Assembly: GCA_964597775.1 (NCBI GenBank)
Contig: CAZQZJ010000002.1
Coordinates: 357-64,356 of the forward strand
DNA: 64,000 nucleotides
From: an uncultured Methanosarcinales archaeon
GTDB taxonomy: Archaea > Nanobdellota > Nanobdellia > Woesearchaeales > JAGWAF01
Direction of reading: 5' to 3'
A program made the position numbers and the translations under genes. Of this stretch, positions 17,222-50,877 are shown piece by piece. The notes under the pieces are model-generated. The model searched no databases. It saw nothing but the letters and a program-made list of their open reading frames with translations, and was not told the DNA's origin. Position 1 is the stretch's first letter. Every line of letters begins with the position of its first letter.

Positions 17222-18643
17222 TTAATTTGTTTCAACAAGACCAAGATTATTCTTGTTTTCCTTTTGATTCACTTCTCGCTTCATGCGAATCCGCAGATGT
17301 GCATAATTAGCAGGGTTCTTAATTCTCTTACAAAGAGAATCTGGCATGCAAATGCCTAGATCTTTGTAATATGGCTGGTTGTCACAATTTGGTGGAAGTA
17401 TAGTGCCTTGTGTTTTAAAATGGTGGTTCAGGTGTCCTTTGATAATAACTTCTCTAAGCGGATCTGGGTTTTTCTTATTCCAGTTTTCAATAAGTAGTTC
17501 TATCTGTGCCTGACTCCAACCTGTTGAGCTAAGGAAATTAGTAAGAATAAAGAGTGCTCTTTTTTTACCATCTTGCATGCCTCCTAAGATGTTCATGATG
17601 CATGGTGGAAAATGTTCAAGAGGGATTGCTTCTTGTGGTGTGTCAAAAGCTTTTTTGATTCCGTCAATTCTTTCTTTATCAGGTGGAAGTTTGTAATCAA
17701 ATGCATTGACAAGTAATCGTCTTGCTTCTCCTTGTGCTACTTTAGTACGATCAAGAAATTTTTCTTTTCCAAGATTAATTGATTCTGGTGTTGCCATTGT
17801 CTTATCAAAAGTGATGATTTGAGATGGGTTAATTGGAATTGAAACCAGTCCACTTTTTTCATTAAGCGAGTATGGCATGCGGTAGAGGTGTCTAGAGGAG
17901 ATAAGGACTGTGTCAATAATAAGGACTTTGAATGGATCAAATTCTTTATTTGTCATTAGATCTTCAGGTTTTTTGTTAAGGATTCCACAGATAGTTGATA
18001 GTTGTTGAAATTCAAGAAGTGCTTGTGCAAGTGGTTCACGAATCATTTCACTAAGATATGCAGCAATACGTCTAGGTCCTTGAGGAAACAGGTGTTGTGT
18101 TGGAATGCTATTAATTTCAGATGGAAATGCCTCAAATGGTACAGCAATGTGGAATCCGTGATTTCCTGAGAATTTGATTGTTGTAGAATTAATGCCGTGA
18201 TAAATAAGGACATTATAAAGGATTTGTGCTGCAATTTGTGAATAAGAAAGGATTGGGCAGTCAATGTCTAAGATAAGATCCCAGCCAATGCGAAGGGTGT
18301 CAAGTTCTTGGCGATGCATTTGTGTGGTGAGGTACATAGGGTTTGTCCATAGTTCTTCTGAGCAATGAAATGATGTGGCGCCTTGTTGAACAAGGGTGAT
18401 CACATCGTTTGCAAATTGTAGGGTGTCTGGTCTTTTTCCATAGTTTCCATCTTTGTATCGGATTGCGATTTCCTTTCCATAGGCAAAATCTACAATTATT
18501 TTTTGTATTTCTGGTCTTTTGTAATATTTGAGAATTGTAGAGGTGCTAAGATCCATAAGCCTAGTAGTGTAGATAATCTTCTTAATTCTTGTGATAAGCA
18601 AAGGCGAGCAGTCGGTTTCAAAAGTGGCGTTCTCCTTTGTCAT
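17222..18643 (-). CDS. Fused DNA primase: PriS catalytic domain + PriL C-terminal 4-Cys (Fe-S) domain
   Basis: PriS motifs LILDIDCPI and FSGNHGFHIAV; C-terminal region with 4 spaced Cys (PPCIMN, PNCDN, GICMP, SLCKR) resembling PriL-CTD. Confidence 0.7.
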   Translation of the reverse strand: MTKENATFETDCSPLLITRIKKIIYTTRLMDLSTSTILKYYKRPEIQKIIVDFAYGKEIAIRYKDGNYGKRPDTLQFANDVITLVQQGATSFHCSEELWTNPMYLTTQMHRQELDTLRIGWDLILDIDCPILSYSQIAAQILYNVLIYHGINSTTIKFSGNHGFHIAVPFEAFPSEINSIPTQHLFPQGPRRIAAYLSEMIREPLAQALLEFQQLSTICGILNKKPEDLMTNKEFDPFKVLIIDTVLISSRHLYRMPYSLNEKSGLVSIPINPSQIITFDKTMATPESINLGKEKFLDRTKVAQGEARRLLVNAFDYKLPPDKERIDGIKKAFDTPQEAIPLEHFPPCIMNILGGMQDGKKRALFILTNFLSSTGWSQAQIELLIENWNKKNPDPLREVIIKGHLNHHFKTQGTILPPNCDNQPYYKDLGICMPDSLCKRIKNPANYAHLRIRMKREVNQKENKNNLGLVETN

Positions 18644-18646
18644 CTC

Positions 18647-18850
18647 GTACTTGTTAAGCCAGGTGTTATACAGAGGCGCTGGCGTGGGACGTCAAGATGC
18701 GAGCACTATTATGAAGTTCTACGCAAACCCGAGGAGGTTCCAGATAGGAGGGTTTCTTTGAATAGTTCTGTGAAGTGCGAGCGACGTCCCATTTTTGCGC
18801 AAGCAAAAATAAGCCAGTGCCTCTGCAATAGGTGTGGGCTTAACAAGTAC
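18647..18850 (+). ncRNA. Structured repeat element E, copy 1: 14-bp terminal helix gtacttgttaagcc/ggcttaacaagtac plus internal helices. Candidate ncRNA or MITE-like element
   Basis: Second copy at 35380-35638 with conserved core and compensatory stem change (cagaggcgctggc pairs gccagTgcctctg here and gccagCgcctctg in copy 2). Confidence 0.45.
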
Positions 18851-18867
18851 GTCATCTCCAAACCTTT

Positions 18868-18882
18868 AAATAATATATAGCA
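18868..18882 (+). promoter_or_regulatory. BRE/TATA-like motif CCAAACCTTTAAATA upstream of the P-type ATPase gene
   Basis: Same 15-mer recurs at 50398-50412; archaeal TATA consensus TTTAAATA. Confidence 0.45.
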
Positions 18883-18894
18883 TGGTTCTCTTGT

Positions 18895-21516
18895 ATGGTT
18901 GAGGTGTATCAGTACTCTATTAATGATATTCTTACCATCTTCAAAACCCAAAGAAATGGACTAAATGATAGTGAAGTTCAGGCAAGACTTGTTATATATG
19001 GAAAGAATCTTATTGAGCGTACACACATAATTAATCCATGGGTAATCCTTTTTATGCAATTTGCAAATCCTGTGGTATGGGTGCTTTTTGGAGCAGGTTT
19101 GATTACAGCAGTGCTTAAAGAGTATATTGATAGTATAGTAATTGGGATTGTGATTTTTGTTAACACTATTTTTGGTTTTGTGCAAGAATATCATGCTGAA
19201 AAGTCAATTGAGGCATTGCGTAAAACATTGGGTTTACAGGCTCGCGTGTTTCGTAATGGTAATGTTGTAGTAATTGATGCTACTAATCTGGTGCCTGGTG
19301 ATATTGTTTTGTTAGATACTGGGGATAAGATTCCGGCAGATTGCAGGCTTATTGAATGTGTGAATCTTAAAATTCAGGAAGCGAGTTTGACTGGTGAAAG
19401 TATGCCTGTGAAAAAAACTCTTGAAGCACTCAAGTTTGTTACTGGCGTTGCAAATCAGCAAAATATGGTTTTTGCAAGTACTGTTGTGGTTATGGGTAGG
19501 GGTGTTGGTGTGGTTACTTCAACAGGATTCTCAACCCAGGTTGGTAAGATTGCACATCTTATTGAGGAAGCATTGCCAAATCTAACTCCACTTCAGAAGC
19601 GTCTTAAAGCATTAAGTGTACATGTAACAATTGGTACTATCTTGGTCTGTTTAGTAGTTTTTGTTACTGGTGTGTTTTATAATCAAAATTTGTTCGATGT
19701 TTTTTTGCAATCAGTTTCTCTTGCTGTTGCTGCAATTCCTGAGGGTTTGCCAGCAGTTGTGACAATAACATTAGCATTAGGAGTGCGTATTATGGCTGCA
19801 AATAAGGCTCTTGTTAGAAAACTACCAAGTGTCGAAACCCTTGGTGCATGTACTGTTATTTGTTCTGATAAAACTGGAACTCTTACTCATAATGAAATGA
19901 CTGTGCAGCATCTGTATGTAGATCAGAAGATAATTCATGTAAGCGGAACAGGATACAGATCACAAGGTACACTCTCCTCTCACCCAAAAGAGGTTGATCT
20001 GCTTGTAACCATAGGAGCATTATGCAATAATGCACGATTGGAAAAGAAAGAAAAATTAGGGGTTATTGGAGATCCTACTGAGGCTGCCCTTTTAGTAAGC
20101 AGTGAAAAAGCCGGATTGAATCTAGATATATTGCAAAAACAGTATCCTCGTGTAGATGAAATCTCTTTTTCTAGTGAACGAAAATGTATGACCACAATTC
20201 ATGGCAAAAACGGAAGGTACACATCGTTTATGAAAGGTGCCTCTGAGATTGTGCTTGCGTGTTGCACACATGTTCTTGAGCATGGAACAAAGCAGGTTTT
20301 AAGTGTACAGATGCGTAAGAATATTTTGTCAGTGAATGAGGCTTTTGCCAATCAGGGTTTGCGTGTTCTAGGTTTTGCATACAAAAACATGGCAACAAAG
20401 GCTCATCCTGAAGAAGGGCTTGTATTTGTGGGATTACAAGCTATGATAGATCCTCCAAGGCCAGAGGTAAGAGAAGCAATCAAGATGTGTCATAAAGCAG
20501 GGATTAAGGTTGTTATGATTACAGGTGATCATATAAGCACTGCAGTTGCTATTAGTAAGGAGATTGGAATTTTAGGTAAAGCTGTGAGTGGTGATGAATT
20601 AAGCACATTAAATTTGGATTGTATCATTGATGAAGTTGGGGTATATGCTAGAGTTGATCCAGTGCATAAATTGCGTATTGTTGAGGCACTTAAGAAAAAA
20701 GGGCATGTTGTAGCTATGACTGGTGATGGTGTTAATGATGCGCCGGCGCTTAAATCAGCAGATATTGGTATTGCAATGGGAATGACTGGGACTGATGTTG
20801 CAAAGGAAGCAAGTGTTATGGTTCTTGCTGATGATAATTTTGCCACAATTGTTTCAGCGATAAAACAAGGTCGTAAGATCTATGATAATATTAAGAAGTT
20901 TGTTGTGTATTTGTTAAGTTCAAATATGGGAGAGGTATTAACAGTTTTTGTAGGAGCACTGCTTGGTTTGCCGCTGATCTTGATTGCACGCCAGATCTTG
21001 TGGGTGAATCTCGTGACAGATTTATTGCCAGCACTTGCATTAGGGCAAGAACCAGAAGAGCCTTCACTTATGGAGCGACCACCTCAAAAAGCATCAGATG
21101 AAATACTCTCTTCTAAACAAGGAGTCATCTTAGGTAGTATAGGATTATATATTATGGCAGGTACGCTCCTCGCATTCATGTTAGGTGAACCGTCTACAAA
21201 TCTTCTTAAATCACAGACATTGGCATTTACCACTCTTGTCTTTTTCCAGCTTTTTAATGTATTTTTATTGCGAAGTCAACACCATCATATTTGGGAATTA
21301 AAGATAAATTGGATGTTAATTTTTGGAGTTGGATTAAGTGTGGTACTCCAAATTGCAGTAGTTATGATACCATCATTTTCAGTTATATTTGGTACAACAT
21401 CACTTAATGCATTTGAATGGTTATTTGTTTTAGCATGTTCAAGCAGTTTATTTATTGTAGGAGAATTGTCAAAAGGATTCATTAATCATTGGCAAGCAAG
21501 ATCTCAGGTTCTTTGA
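18895..21516 (+). CDS. P2-type cation-transporting ATPase (SERCA/PMCA-like)
   Basis: DKTGTLT phosphorylation motif, PEGLP in M4, MTGDGVNDAPAL, 873 aa with 10 TM. Confidence 0.9.
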   Translation: MVEVYQYSINDILTIFKTQRNGLNDSEVQARLVIYGKNLIERTHIINPWVILFMQFANPVVWVLFGAGLITAVLKEYIDSIVIGIVIFVNTIFGFVQEYHAEKSIEALRKTLGLQARVFRNGNVVVIDATNLVPGDIVLLDTGDKIPADCRLIECVNLKIQEASLTGESMPVKKTLEALKFVTGVANQQNMVFASTVVVMGRGVGVVTSTGFSTQVGKIAHLIEEALPNLTPLQKRLKALSVHVTIGTILVCLVVFVTGVFYNQNLFDVFLQSVSLAVAAIPEGLPAVVTITLALGVRIMAANKALVRKLPSVETLGACTVICSDKTGTLTHNEMTVQHLYVDQKIIHVSGTGYRSQGTLSSHPKEVDLLVTIGALCNNARLEKKEKLGVIGDPTEAALLVSSEKAGLNLDILQKQYPRVDEISFSSERKCMTTIHGKNGRYTSFMKGASEIVLACCTHVLEHGTKQVLSVQMRKNILSVNEAFANQGLRVLGFAYKNMATKAHPEEGLVFVGLQAMIDPPRPEVREAIKMCHKAGIKVVMITGDHISTAVAISKEIGILGKAVSGDELSTLNLDCIIDEVGVYARVDPVHKLRIVEALKKKGHVVAMTGDGVNDAPALKSADIGIAMGMTGTDVAKEASVMVLADDNFATIVSAIKQGRKIYDNIKKFVVYLLSSNMGEVLTVFVGALLGLPLILIARQILWVNLVTDLLPALALGQEPEEPSLMERPPQKASDEILSSKQGVILGSIGLYIMAGTLLAFMLGEPSTNLLKSQTLAFTTLVFFQLFNVFLLRSQHHHIWELKINWMLIFGVGLSVVLQIAVVMIPSFSVIFGTTSLNAFEWLFVLACSSSLFIVGELSKGFINHWQARSQVL

Positions 21517-26281: not shown

Positions 26282-26380
26282 TCTCAAATGGGTTCTATCC
26301 CGATGCTCTGCATCGGATATATTTGCCAATTTGAGATTAAAAAATACTCCTGGGCTCTTCCCAGGTTGGGATTTTTTATT
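26282..26380. repeat. Intergenic module X, copy 1: TATA-like GGATATATTT(minus AAATATATCC) + A6-hairpin(cctgggc/gcccagg)-T6
   Basis: ~90% identical copy at 43521-43621 immediately upstream of tRNA-Leu; partial copy at 31806-31900. Confidence 0.6.
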
Positions 26381-27053: not shown

Positions 27054-27172
27054 AATTATATCAAATCACTTTAATTATAGGATATTTTTCCCAGATTAAA
27101 GTGATTTGATTATTAGGAAATAACCTTACTTTCATTTTTGAAATATCCTAAAATTAAGGCTATTTCCTATAG
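27054..27172. repeat. Double-hairpin intergenic repeat, copy 2
   Basis: Matches 1798-1916; stems identical, loop 1 differs. Confidence 0.6.
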
Positions 27173-31786: not shown

Positions 31787-31805
31787 TCTTCGGTGATTGC
31801 TTATG

Positions 31806-31900
31806 TTCTGCATTGGATATATTTACCAATTTCGGGTTTAAAAAATAAGAATTATGCTCCCTAAATGTGAGCAGATCTGTTGCGGTTCTAATTTTTTATT
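31806..31900. repeat. Intergenic module X, degenerate copy 3 (TATA-like part conserved, hairpin diverged), in convergent gap
   Basis: ttctgcattggatatatttaccaattt...tttaaaaaata...aattttttatt aligns to X1/X2. Confidence 0.4.
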
Positions 31901-34587: not shown

Positions 34588-35331
34588 TTAGTCATCTTCT
34601 ACTCTTGGTGCGAGAATAAATGCAAGTAATACACGGTCAACAACCTTATAATCAAGTCTAAGAGGGTAATCTTGGTTAAAACTGATTTCGACTGTTTCAG
34701 CAAGTTTGCTGCCGTTCATCATTTTTTTGAGGTATTCAATAGAATATCTGGCACGTAATCTTTCATGTGATGTAGTAATGATTGTATCTTTTGATGCAGG
34801 AATATCAACATTTGCTTTGGATAGGTCTCCTTCAGCGCGAATAACTAGTTTGTCTGGATGTGCAGTAAAGGCAACGCTTTCAGCTACTATTCCAACATCC
34901 TCGATAGCATCATTAAGTGTGTTGCATAGCATTTTGATACTAACAGGAAGATCAAGTTGTGGCACACGTTGTTCTCTTTTATCCATTTCAATGATTGGTA
35001 CAGAGAATGTTCGTGTTGAGCTTGATGCGAGAATGATGTGAAGCATGTTATCCTCTTCTAAGGAGAGTGTAAGTTGGTCGCTTGGTTTTACCCTGCGCAG
35101 AATTTGTTTAAGATTATTAAGATCAATGCAGATTTCAGTATCCTTTTCAAGTGTGTATTCAGAGAAGCAGGATGCAAGAAGTTTAAATACAACCATGGCA
35201 ACATTGGCAGGATCCATAGCAACAAGTTCAATGCTATTTTTCGTGATTTTAAAGCGTGCTTCATTAACAAGTTCTGAGATAACTGCTATGCTATCTTTAA
35301 GATATGCTGGATCAATAAGTGTAAGTTTCAT
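34588..35331 (-). CDS. pcn: DNA polymerase sliding clamp PCNA
   Basis: 247 aa, two-domain PCNA pattern, C-terminal acidic tail. Confidence 0.9.
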   Translation of the reverse strand: MKLTLIDPAYLKDSIAVISELVNEARFKITKNSIELVAMDPANVAMVVFKLLASCFSEYTLEKDTEICIDLNNLKQILRRVKPSDQLTLSLEEDNMLHIILASSSTRTFSVPIIEMDKREQRVPQLDLPVSIKMLCNTLNDAIEDVGIVAESVAFTAHPDKLVIRAEGDLSKANVDIPASKDTIITTSHERLRARYSIEYLKKMMNGSKLAETVEISFNQDYPLRLDYKVVDRVLLAFILAPRVEDD

Positions 35332-35379
35332 GCTTATACCGCGGGATTATTAGTTATTATTTAAAATCTTCGTTCAGGT

Positions 35380-35638
35380 GTACTTGTTAAGTCTGGTGTT
35401 ATGCAGAGGCGCTGGCGTGGAACGCAACAATGTCGCATTTCTACCTTGTGCACAGCGAAAGCCGAAGGACTCGATTGTGCCAAGATGCGAGCACTATTAT
35501 GAATTTCTACGCAAACCTAAGGAGGTTCCAGATACAAGGGTTTCTTTGAATAGTTCTGTGAAGTGCGAGCGGCGTTGTGTGTTTGCGAGTGCAAAAACAA
35601 GCCAGCGCCTCTGCAATCGATGGGGGTCTAACAAGTAC
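35380..35638 (+). ncRNA. Structured repeat element E, copy 2 (with ~50-nt internal insertion relative to copy 1)
   Basis: Terminal helix gtacttgtta.../...taacaagtac, conserved 90-nt core, compensatory stem change vs copy 1. Confidence 0.45.
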
Positions 35639-35640
35639 GT

Positions 35641-37026
35641 TCAGGTGAGGCGTAGTGTTTCTCCATTATTCATTGGGTGTATTGTTTGGTCTATATGGTA
35701 TCCTAGTTCGTCACTAAGTTTGTGGAATGAATCCATCATGATATGTCCTCCATGTGAAGGGATTAGGTGTTGTGGTTTGAGGTATTTGAGAAGGTCGCGA
35801 AGATCCTCTTTGCTTGCATGTCCTGATACATGAACATCCTTAAAAATGCGTACACCAAATTTTTTAAGATCTGCTTCAAGTTCAGCTCTATTTTGTTCAT
35901 TAATTTGTGTTGGGATTACTTTGCAAGAAAAGATGATGTGGTCTTCTGTTTTAAAAGTGAATGGTAACACTCCATGTGTCATTCTGTGTAGTACAGATTT
36001 TGGTTCTCCTTGGTGGCCAGTAGCAACAATGACGTATTTGTCTCGTTTTTTATTAATTTTAGTAAGAATTTGTGCAACATGTTTTGGATATTTGACAATT
36101 TCAACAGTATCAAAATGTATAAGTCCGCAGGCTATTGCAGCTTCCACATATTTTGAAAGTGAGCGTCCAAGAAAAACAACCTTGCGATTAAGTTTTCGTG
36201 AAAATTCCACAATTGATTTAAGTCTGGCAATATGGCTTGAGAATGTGGTAACAATGATTGCCTTGCCTTTACTATTTACAGAAAGCATAACTTCTTGTAG
36301 CATTTGTCGTGCTACACTTTCTGATGGCGTTTTTCCTTCTAATGGTGCATAAAGGCATTCTGAAATAAGTAAAGCAACGCCTTTGTTTCCAATAGATTCA
36401 AGTAGTTGATATGGTGGTTTTTTGCCTATGATAGGTGTATTATCAAGTTTGAAATCATTTGCATATACAATTGCGCCGTATGGTGTGTGAAGTACAACAA
36501 GGCATGAGTGTGGGGTTGAATGTGTGATTTCTATTAATTGTATTGCAAGAGTAGTTGTGAGTTGAATAAGTTTATTCATATCAGTTACAATCAATTCATT
36601 AGGAAGATGAATATGTTCGTCAGATAATATGCGTTTTATGACTTCTAGTGTGAATGGTGATGCTATAATTGGTGCATTGTATTTAGCAGCAAGGTATGGA
36701 ATAGCTCCAATATGGTCAAGATGTGCATGAGAAGGAATAATCGCGCGTACCTGATTCTTCCAATCAGCAATAATTGAGTCATCTGGTATTGCTTGGGCAT
36801 TAATAAGTTGTTGAGTAGAGATTTTAACAAGATCCTCTTCTTCAGTAATATTGATATAGTTGGGAAGATGAATCCCCATATCAATAATGATTACATCATT
36901 ATCAATCTTAATAGCAGTCATATTTTTGCCAATTTCACCATATCCTCCAATTGCACGCACTTCAATTCCCATAGAATACTGTTGAAAAGTCAGCTTAATA
37001 ATCCTATCGTTCAAAGAAAAAATCAT
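35641..37026 (-). CDS. Archaeal RNase J-like beta-CASP metallo-beta-lactamase ribonuclease
   Basis: HxHxDH motif (PSHAHLDHIGA), beta-CASP region, ~460 aa. Confidence 0.75.
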   Translation of the reverse strand: MIFSLNDRIIKLTFQQYSMGIEVRAIGGYGEIGKNMTAIKIDNDVIIIDMGIHLPNYINITEEEDLVKISTQQLINAQAIPDDSIIADWKNQVRAIIPSHAHLDHIGAIPYLAAKYNAPIIASPFTLEVIKRILSDEHIHLPNELIVTDMNKLIQLTTTLAIQLIEITHSTPHSCLVVLHTPYGAIVYANDFKLDNTPIIGKKPPYQLLESIGNKGVALLISECLYAPLEGKTPSESVARQMLQEVMLSVNSKGKAIIVTTFSSHIARLKSIVEFSRKLNRKVVFLGRSLSKYVEAAIACGLIHFDTVEIVKYPKHVAQILTKINKKRDKYVIVATGHQGEPKSVLHRMTHGVLPFTFKTEDHIIFSCKVIPTQINEQNRAELEADLKKFGVRIFKDVHVSGHASKEDLRDLLKYLKPQHLIPSHGGHIMMDSFHKLSDELGYHIDQTIHPMNNGETLRLT

Positions 37027-43166: not shown

Positions 43167-43430
43167 TCTTTGAATCAACGATAAGTATGTGATAAATATG
43201 TGGTCCTAATATAGTTTAATATTTCAATTACCTTTCCAGGATTTCCTCTTCCAACAGGGAAATAACAAGGAATTACAAGGTATTCCATCCCAAAAATAGG
43301 TTTGCGTTAAAAATATCTTCCAAATCTCTTTTGTTCCAACAAATGGGAATCTTACTCAGTTATATTCTAGAGATGAGGTGGTTAAATCACTCATTAAACC
43401 CTCTAAGTGTAACTTATTCAATAGGTTTAG

Positions 43431-43514
43431 TGCAAGGAGCAGGATTCGAACCTGCGAACGCACTAAGCGAACAGCTCTTGAGGCTGCCCCGTTTGACCAC
43501 TCCGGAATCCTTGC
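43431..43514 (-). tRNA. tRNA-Leu (anticodon CAA), class II with long variable arm
   Basis: Hand-folded: acceptor GCAAGGA/UCCUUGC, anticodon loop CUCAAGA, 15-nt variable arm, T-arm GCAGGUUCGAAUCCUGC; CCA not encoded. Confidence 0.85.
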
Positions 43515-43520
43515 ATGGTT

Positions 43521-43621
43521 TCTCAAATGGGTTCATACCCCATATGCTCTGCATAGGATATATTTACCCATTTGAGATTAAAAAATACCCCTGGGCTCTG
43601 CCCAGGTTGGGATTTTTTATT
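43521..43621. repeat. Intergenic module X, copy 2, immediately upstream of tRNA-Leu; contains the probable tRNA promoter TATA
   Basis: ~90% identity to 26282-26380 including the A6-hairpin-T6 structure. Confidence 0.6.
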
Positions 43622-50402: not shown

Positions 50403-50412
50403 CCTTTAAATA
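50403..50412 (+). promoter_or_regulatory. TATA box CCTTTAAATA (with CCAAA BRE-like) upstream of candidate RNase P RNA
   Basis: Same 15-mer as the ATPase promoter. Confidence 0.4.
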
Positions 50413-50439
50413 TGATCTAACTCTTACTGTCTTATCCAG

Positions 50440-50800
50440 GGTGCAGACGAAGCCAACGGTAACATCATATTGTTTGGTGTCTCTGAGGAAAGTCTGCCCA
50501 CATCCAGGATCTTTAGTTCAAATCTAAAGATTCTGCAGACAAGCGGTACCTATCCAAACAATAGGATCCAGTAATGGATGGCAACATCACCGAAACGACA
50601 CGGCCATATGCAGATGAGAATGACGCAGTGAAGTCCTTGGTAACAGGGATGAGTTAACCTGTAGAATGATGCATAATGGATGCGATGAAACGGATAGCCC
50701 TATCGTGTGCAAGGCAAACAAGATGCAAGTAGTTCATAAAAACATGTCTGCGTGCTCTTCACATGCCGCTTAGTTGAATGCTTCGGCAGATCATCGGAAG
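50440..50800 (+). ncRNA. rnpB: Candidate RNase P RNA
   Basis: Non-coding 480-bp gap with TATA; CR-I-like GAGGAAAGUCUGCCC at 50485-50499; distal GGCAGAU (50785-50791) can pair with GUCUGCC to form a P4-like helix. Confidence 0.35.
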
Positions 50801-50877
50801 GATGTTATAATCTTTCTTTGGGTCTGACAAAAGGCAGCTTATATGCGCCCTGGATCTTTTTTAAGGTGAGGAAGAGT

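Follow-up and report, generated by a model that had tools for sequence, protein, structure and literature searches.

The PCNA gene (34588-35331, minus strand) and the gene for an RNase J-type beta-CASP nuclease (35641-37026, minus strand) are separated, in the 64,000-nucleotide stretch of archaeal DNA analysed here (the window), by a spacer that is largely occupied by a repeated and foldable sequence, element E. This locus raises the question of what the element is: the gene of a structured RNA, an idea prompted by its helices in an earlier note on the same DNA, or a piece of DNA that reached the spacer from elsewhere. Our analysis indicates that element E very probably represents a new family of MITEs, which are non-coding, non-autonomous DNA transposons, in a Woesearchaeota-related DPANN archaeon from Hainich groundwater. 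This assignment is based on the association of terminal inverted repeats with target-site duplications, the signature of cut-and-paste transposition.

The copies are bordered by inverted repeats and 8-bp duplications

Two copies of the element are present in the window, in the same orientation and with 87% identity over 204 aligned bases. Copy 2, the long form of 259 bp, extends from 35380 to 35638, and its ends coincide with the terminal inverted repeats GTACTTGTTAAG and TCTAACAAGTAC (nhmmer score of 314 bits). Copy 1, the short form of 204 bp, is located at 18647-18850, as defined by repeat search, four-copy alignment and nhmmer. Two other copies were reached by walking off both window ends via the edge genes, followed by nhmmer. 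Copy 3 (259 bp; L021 19716-19974, also L022 17220-17478) lies about 8 kb past the right end of the window, 69 nt from a contig end and directly upstream of the TATA box of a SIMPL-domain gene. Copy 4 (250 bp, more divergent; L024 14126-14375) was found about 0.7 kb past the left end, close to a contig end and without an adjacent TATA box. The MCM gene has its TGA within the left duplication of this copy, so that the insertion lies right after the MCM stop codon. The genome thus has at least four copies, spread over about 73 kb next to the primase/ATPase, RNase J/PCNA, SIMPL and MCM genes. This density agrees with that of a Woesearchaeal genome for which a high figure of about 100 MITEs/Mb was reported (PMC11602168). 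At both window loci, short-read assemblies of the same samples are interrupted within the element, which explains why assemblies of this DPANN genome break there.

The terminal inverted repeat GTACTTGTT/AACAAGTAC is unchanged at all eight termini of the four copies. The left end of copies 1 and 2 reads GTACTTGTTAAG; the right end of copy 1 is its exact reverse complement, and that of copy 2 carries two mismatches. Furthermore, each window copy is flanked on both sides by perfect 8-bp direct repeats, the decisive feature that the earlier note had missed. These are GTCATCTC for copy 1 (18639-18646 and 18851-18858) and GTTCAGGT for copy 2 (35372-35379 and 35639-35646). The chance of finding one perfect 8-bp flanking repeat, calculated from the base composition, is about 2 × 10^-5 per copy. 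Duplications of the same length border copy 3 (CTTGTATG/CTTGTAGG) and copy 4 (GTGACTTG/GTGACTTT), with 7 of 8 positions matching in both cases. An 8-bp duplication is therefore found at all four copies, two being perfect and two at 7/8.

Terminal inverted repeats, a duplication of fixed length, a small size without transposase gene, several unrelated loci and an empty homologous site (see below) are the properties that identify the element as a MITE. The mobility is deduced from sequence comparisons, and no polymorphism between occupied and empty sites was seen within the same population. In the mechanism that we envisage, a transposase encoded elsewhere would cut and paste the 204-259-bp element. 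The enzyme, presumably of the DDE type, would bind the bipartite ends of the element, the target would be cut with a stagger of 8 bp, and repair of the gaps would create the duplication. Other kinds of mobile DNA were considered and rejected. IS200/605-type PATEs, group II introns and retro-elements do not fit, because inverted repeats and duplications are present and poly-A or intron signatures are not; a casposon is matched neither in size nor in the length of the duplication.

The element family matches nothing in the collections searched. A core 20-mer gave only four chance bacterial matches against the GTDB genomes, and a 25-mer together with a degenerate terminal-repeat pattern had no match in the JGI metagenomes. 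Likewise, no match to the element was obtained in the viral collections scanned or, by blastn, in phage and plasmid collections, and all copies that nhmmer detected in about 237 kb of fetched loci, relatives included, belong to this genome. The search for an autonomous element or a transposase with matching ends was negative, both in about 73 kb of this genome and in the metagenome, viral, phage and plasmid collections.

Copy 2 left the RNase J and PCNA genes intact

The limits of copy 2 given in the earlier note match the element ends exactly, and the gene and promoter coordinates agree with its view that this copy lies directly against the PCNA promoter on one side and the RNase J stop codon on the other. 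The claim that the copy fills the whole intergenic region has to be revised: of the 309 nt of spacer (35332-35640), 259 belong to the element and 8 to the duplication, which leaves about 42 nt of native sequence. The PCNA promoter is in the native part, outside the element, and consists on the minus strand of a BRE-like GAAGAT (35366-35371) followed by the TATA box TTTAAATAATA (35355-35365). The TATA-like sequence ATTATTTAAAAT described previously is indeed present at 35356-35367. Its proposed function in leaderless transcription of PCNA is plausible, in a near-leaderless form, as TTTAAATA ends 26 nt ahead of the PCNA ATG and has a counterpart in a relative.

The relatives of the PCNA protein are Woesearchaeota, and the RNase J-PCNA gene order is kept in two of them (loci L014 and L017, with PCNA identities to the window of 77% and 67%, respectively). 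Their spacers measure 57-58 nt and are devoid of the element. At the empty site of L014, GAAG and a T-rich TATA box, TTTTTATATAT, precede the PCNA ATG by about 22 nt. This homology indicates that the TATA box at copy 2 is the pre-existing PCNA promoter and not a part of the element. The RNase J proteins of the window and of L014 end at the same residue (...NGETLRLT* and ...NGESLRLN*, respectively), showing that the TGA held in the right-hand duplication (35641-35643, minus strand) is the native stop codon. The RNase J protein is unchanged by the insertion of copy 2. Since the duplication re-created the stop codon and the promoter was left whole, neither the RNase J nor the PCNA gene was damaged. 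Copy 2 would have landed between the stop codon of the former and the BRE/TATA of the latter; the element would now form the start of the RNase J 3' region, in which archaeal transcription could terminate at a T5 run, about 45 nt beyond that codon. To find a MITE is ordinary biology; the locus illustrates that a transposon can occupy the ~42-nt spacer of a streamlined genome without harm to either neighbour. In another relative (GCA_016211165.1; L015 1-150), paired TGTAGCTACA palindromes mark the end of the contig, 150 nt upstream of PCNA; a repeat of another kind may occupy the corresponding site there.

Copy 1 sits between divergent genes, and its locus is rearranged in the relatives, the usable empty-site comparison being that of copy 2. 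A P-type cation ATPase gene (about 18895-21516, plus strand) lies between the M48 peptidase and primase genes, with copy 1 at its promoter-side border. The two closest relatives (L019 and L020) have no such gene at this place, their M48 peptidase and primase genes being directly divergent. A composite transposon carrying the ATPase gene was rejected, as there is no second end. On the other side of copy 1, the fused PriS/PriL-type primase (17222-18643, minus strand) is modelled by NCBI as a protein of 473 aa (MEK6875022.1), with its ATG within the left duplication of copy 1. The homologues align only from residue 30, and a TTAATA-type box is located about 30 nt upstream, as in the window at 18580-18590. 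Because the homologues start at M30, the 473-aa model is over-long and the true start is likely at 18556. The possibility that copy 1 cut the primase gene off from its promoter was rejected for the same reason, the TATA box about 30 nt upstream of M30 being its own.

The element has bipartite ends and no conserved reading frame

A conservation profile of the four-copy alignment was used to compare the regions of the element. Pairwise identity reaches 96% and 85% in the left and right outer terminal repeats (outer 12 nt), and falls to 54% in the left spacer (about 12 nt) and 64% in the right one. It rises again in the inner repeat (CAGAGGCGCTGGC), with 90% on the left and 80% on the right, and amounts to 82% in the core. 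Each end therefore comprises an invariant outer terminal inverted repeat of 9-12 bp, parted by a variable spacer of about 12 nt from a conserved inner repeat. From the sequence, such bipartite ends would be as expected for the binding of a two-domain transposase.

The long and short forms differ by an internal segment of 55 nt containing two small hairpins (35425-35479 in copy 2). The four-copy alignment shows that this segment is complete in copies 2 and 3, 12 nt shorter in copy 4 and deleted in copy 1. Being common to copies 2, 3 and 4, it identifies copy 1 as a deletion derivative; the insertion of about 50 nt described for copy 2 corresponds to 55 nt that copy 1 has lost.

The element lacks a conserved reading frame, the frames differing between copies. 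A six-frame chimeric protein query against 5.8 billion proteins gave as sole match a spurious ORF of the window itself, P0001. A micro-ORF in the core (MKFYANPRRFQIGGFL) was rejected since every difference between copies is non-synonymous. The ORF P0001 (151 aa; 35378-35833, plus strand), which has entered public protein sets, starts in the left duplication, crosses the MITE and continues antisense to RNase J; it is an artefact. Two annotations, this spurious ORF and the over-long primase call, are thus corrected.

Three of the four copies lie at the same distance from a TATA box

Read outward from the element, three of the four copies show the same succession: the 8-bp duplication, exactly 6 nt of BRE-like sequence, then a TATA box of the type TWTAAATAA. 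At copy 1, the duplication GTCATCTC is followed by CAAACC and the TATA box TTTAAATAATA of the ATPase gene (18859-18875, plus strand), with the same geometry as at copy 2; this symmetry had been caught by the inverted-repeat search. At copy 2, the order is ACCTGAAC, GAAGAT and the TTTAAATAATA of PCNA, and at copy 3 it is CATACAAG, AAAGTA and the TATAAATAACT of the SIMPL gene. All these TATA boxes serve genes that point away from the element. The window has just two exact occurrences of the 11-mer TTTAAATAATA, each of them next to a copy of the element, and TWTAAATA occurs 19 times in the 64 kb, both strands included.

We estimate the chance that three of four random intergenic insertions fall at that offset at about 10^-7. 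Under the most conservative null, in which all viable sites are within 40 nt of a TATA box and the offset is not pre-specified, this value would be about 2.5 × 10^-3 at most. At copy 2, any offset from 0 to 8 would spare stop codon and promoter alike, and at copy 1 tens of nucleotides of free spacer are available. Since selection alone would allow a range of offsets, the three concordant sites among four copies suggest that target choice is probably measured from the TATA/BRE. As to how, we tentatively propose that the transposase itself measures from the archaeal promoter, with the 8-bp staggered cut made exactly 6 bp upstream of the TWTAAATAA box, at the outer edge of the BRE, through a DNA motif or bend or through docking on TBP/TFB; we hold this scheme to be possible rather than probable. 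If the fixed offset holds, it would represent a "safe-harbour" logic of insertion that occurs naturally in compact archaeal genomes. One could then also approach the question of whether transposases can read the archaeal pre-initiation complex, which connects with the Pol III-targeted elements of eukaryotes.

Folding of the element and alternative readings

The earlier note had called for a folding comparison of the copies, and a shared architecture was found, in the form of a long hairpin. The z scores of the folds are -8.4 (copy 1) and -5.0 (copy 2) on the plus strand, and -9.3 and -5.9, respectively, on the minus strand. Folding is equally strong on both strands and thus provides no strand-specific signal. 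Eight compensatory pairs were counted, versus 1.8 +/- 1.2 in shuffles, and they are distributed over six of the eight helices, internal ones included. These changes show that the pairing potential is maintained. The covariation test was performed on four distinct copies with a structure derived from those same sequences, and for this reason covariation cannot establish an RNA. In copy 4, both arms are changed in concert (GTTAAGCC to GTTTAGTT and AG to GA, with the partner changes), as is also expected from the co-evolution of two transposase-binding ends. A shared fold is expected of an RNA and of a palindromic transposon alike, and this test cannot separate the two.

The first alternative to be weighed is a family of structured non-coding RNA genes, in which the long helix with its variable stem-loop would be the product, transcribed from the neighbouring TATA box. 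The very stable folds (z of -5 to -8) are in its favour, as is the G+C content of 48.5% compared with 37.5% for the genome, an excess of 11 points also seen for the RNase P RNA and the tRNAs of the window. This G+C content counts against a MITE, and so do the eight compensatory pairs, some in internal helices, which amount to more conservation of structure than the binding of a transposase alone needs. However, the target-site duplications and empty sites show that the copies arrived by transposition. Copy 4 has no adjacent TATA box; in the other three copies the box falls outside the duplication, next to the right end of copy 1 but next to the left end of copies 2 and 3. Initiation from it would then transcribe opposite strands in different copies, and no promoter of the element's own, constant in position and strand across the four copies, was evident. 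The suggestion that the TATA box at copy 2 drives PCNA and the element bidirectionally thus loses its basis, this box being target DNA. Both strands fold equally well, and G.T and A.C mismatches, 20 versus 13 in the unbiased union of pairs, reveal no strand signal. Rfam 15, searched with the gathering thresholds and also with E<=10, returned only noise and no family. Of the variable stem-loop likened to those of RNA families, it stands that the extra segment forms hairpins of its own, whereas the RNA family is unsupported. Finally, hairpins maintained by compensatory change have been described for bacterial MITE transcripts and are therefore not diagnostic (PMC10969869). Taken together, these data make an RNA gene very improbable.

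The other two alternatives accept that the element is a transposon in origin and differ in what holds it next to a TATA box. A MITE could have been co-opted by the host as an insulator or terminator between packed genes, its T5 runs and hairpin stopping read-through, from RNase J or MCM for example, just before the next promoter; the fixed TATA position would then reflect selection and not an insertion preference. Copies 2 and 4 come directly after a stop codon and turn their T5-hairpin arm towards the gene, the T5 run being about 45 nt past the stop codon in each case, and the hairpin TTTTTGCG.AAGCAAAAA is conserved with one compensatory pair. Terminator-like MITEs are, moreover, known in bacteria (SPRITE; PMC10969869). 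A terminator role after RNase J and MCM is possible from these features, but selection of this kind tolerates a range of positions and the identical 6-nt offset in three copies is not expected from it. In addition, copy 1 is placed between divergent genes, so there is no read-in to be stopped. A scan for bacterial-type promoters and terminators, which found no terminator, is not informative for an archaeon. We regard co-option as the cause of the fixed position as unlikely. Quite improbable, in our view, is that the copies are relics that no longer move or multiply, old solo remnants of an insertion sequence since lost, and adjoin TATA boxes by coincidence. The copies do differ by at least 13%, two duplications have decayed to 7/8, and no transposase was found. 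Nevertheless, the GTACTTGTT terminus intact at every end and the concerted arm changes of copy 4 argue for continued selection on the ends, and three identical offsets would arise by chance with a probability of about 2.5 × 10^-3 or less, even under the most conservative null.

Relation to known mobile elements

As a MITE, element E can be compared with several known systems. With the prokaryotic MITEs (Sulfolobus SM elements, Halobacterium and Haloquadratum MITEs, and those of the DPANN census, PMC11602168) it shares a small size, the non-coding character, inverted repeats and target-site duplications, as well as occurrence in multiple copies, intergenic location, folding into a long hairpin and restriction to a taxon. 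It is distinguished from them by the lack of a sequence match in the collections searched, by a G+C content well above that of its host, and by an apparently fixed TATA offset. The Correia/NEMIS, ERIC and RUP elements of bacteria are likewise palindromic MITEs situated beside promoters or gene ends. They are co-transcribed with their neighbours and act on expression via hairpins, promoters and terminators (PMC10969869). Sigma-70 promoters of their own are frequent in these bacterial elements, and the duplication made by Correia is TA; in contrast, no internal archaeal promoter is evident in element E and the duplication measures 8 bp.

Duplications of 8 bp are found in the IS6, IS256/ISM1, IS1595, ISL3, IS66 and ISH6 families and in the IS5-ISH1 group of insertion sequences (ISfinder). 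The likeness to these families resides in the duplication length and the terminal inverted repeats. The GTACTTGTT terminus could, however, be matched to none of them here, and the element has no linked transposase gene.

For the apparent relation to promoters, the closest parallels are eukaryotic. The yeast element Ty3 inserts at Pol III start sites via TFIIIB, which is made of TBP and Brf1, and the two factors that guide it have homologues in archaeal TBP and TFB. Insertion at a fixed or preferred distance from a landmark of initiation is also seen for TRE5-A of Dictyostelium and, near 5' ends, for mPing of rice. These elements are retrotransposons or eukaryotic DNA elements whose tether was shown experimentally, whereas the case made here is built on three concordant sites known from their sequence. 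If promoter measurement is true, the element would be an archaeal DNA transposon that targets promoters, in analogy with the targeting of Ty3 by TFIIIB.

Other repeats and RNAs in the window

A different repeat of 119 nt is present at 1799-1917 and 27054-27172. Its two copies are 92% identical and form two consecutive perfect hairpins; neither terminal inverted repeats nor target duplications were evident at this repeat. A three-copy module (26302-26380, 31802-31844 and 43543-43621) contains GGATATATTTACC...TTAAAAAATA, after which two of the three copies have a CCTGGG/CCCAGG hairpin and a T6 run; one copy adjoins the tRNA-Leu(CAA) gene (43430-43514). Either a common promoter/terminator cassette or a small RNA may underlie this module. 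The window also encodes an archaeal RNase P RNA (50439-50850; 96.7 bits) with large insertions, its length being 412 nt against the 288 positions of the model, and a consensus TTTAAATA box is located nearby at 50405.
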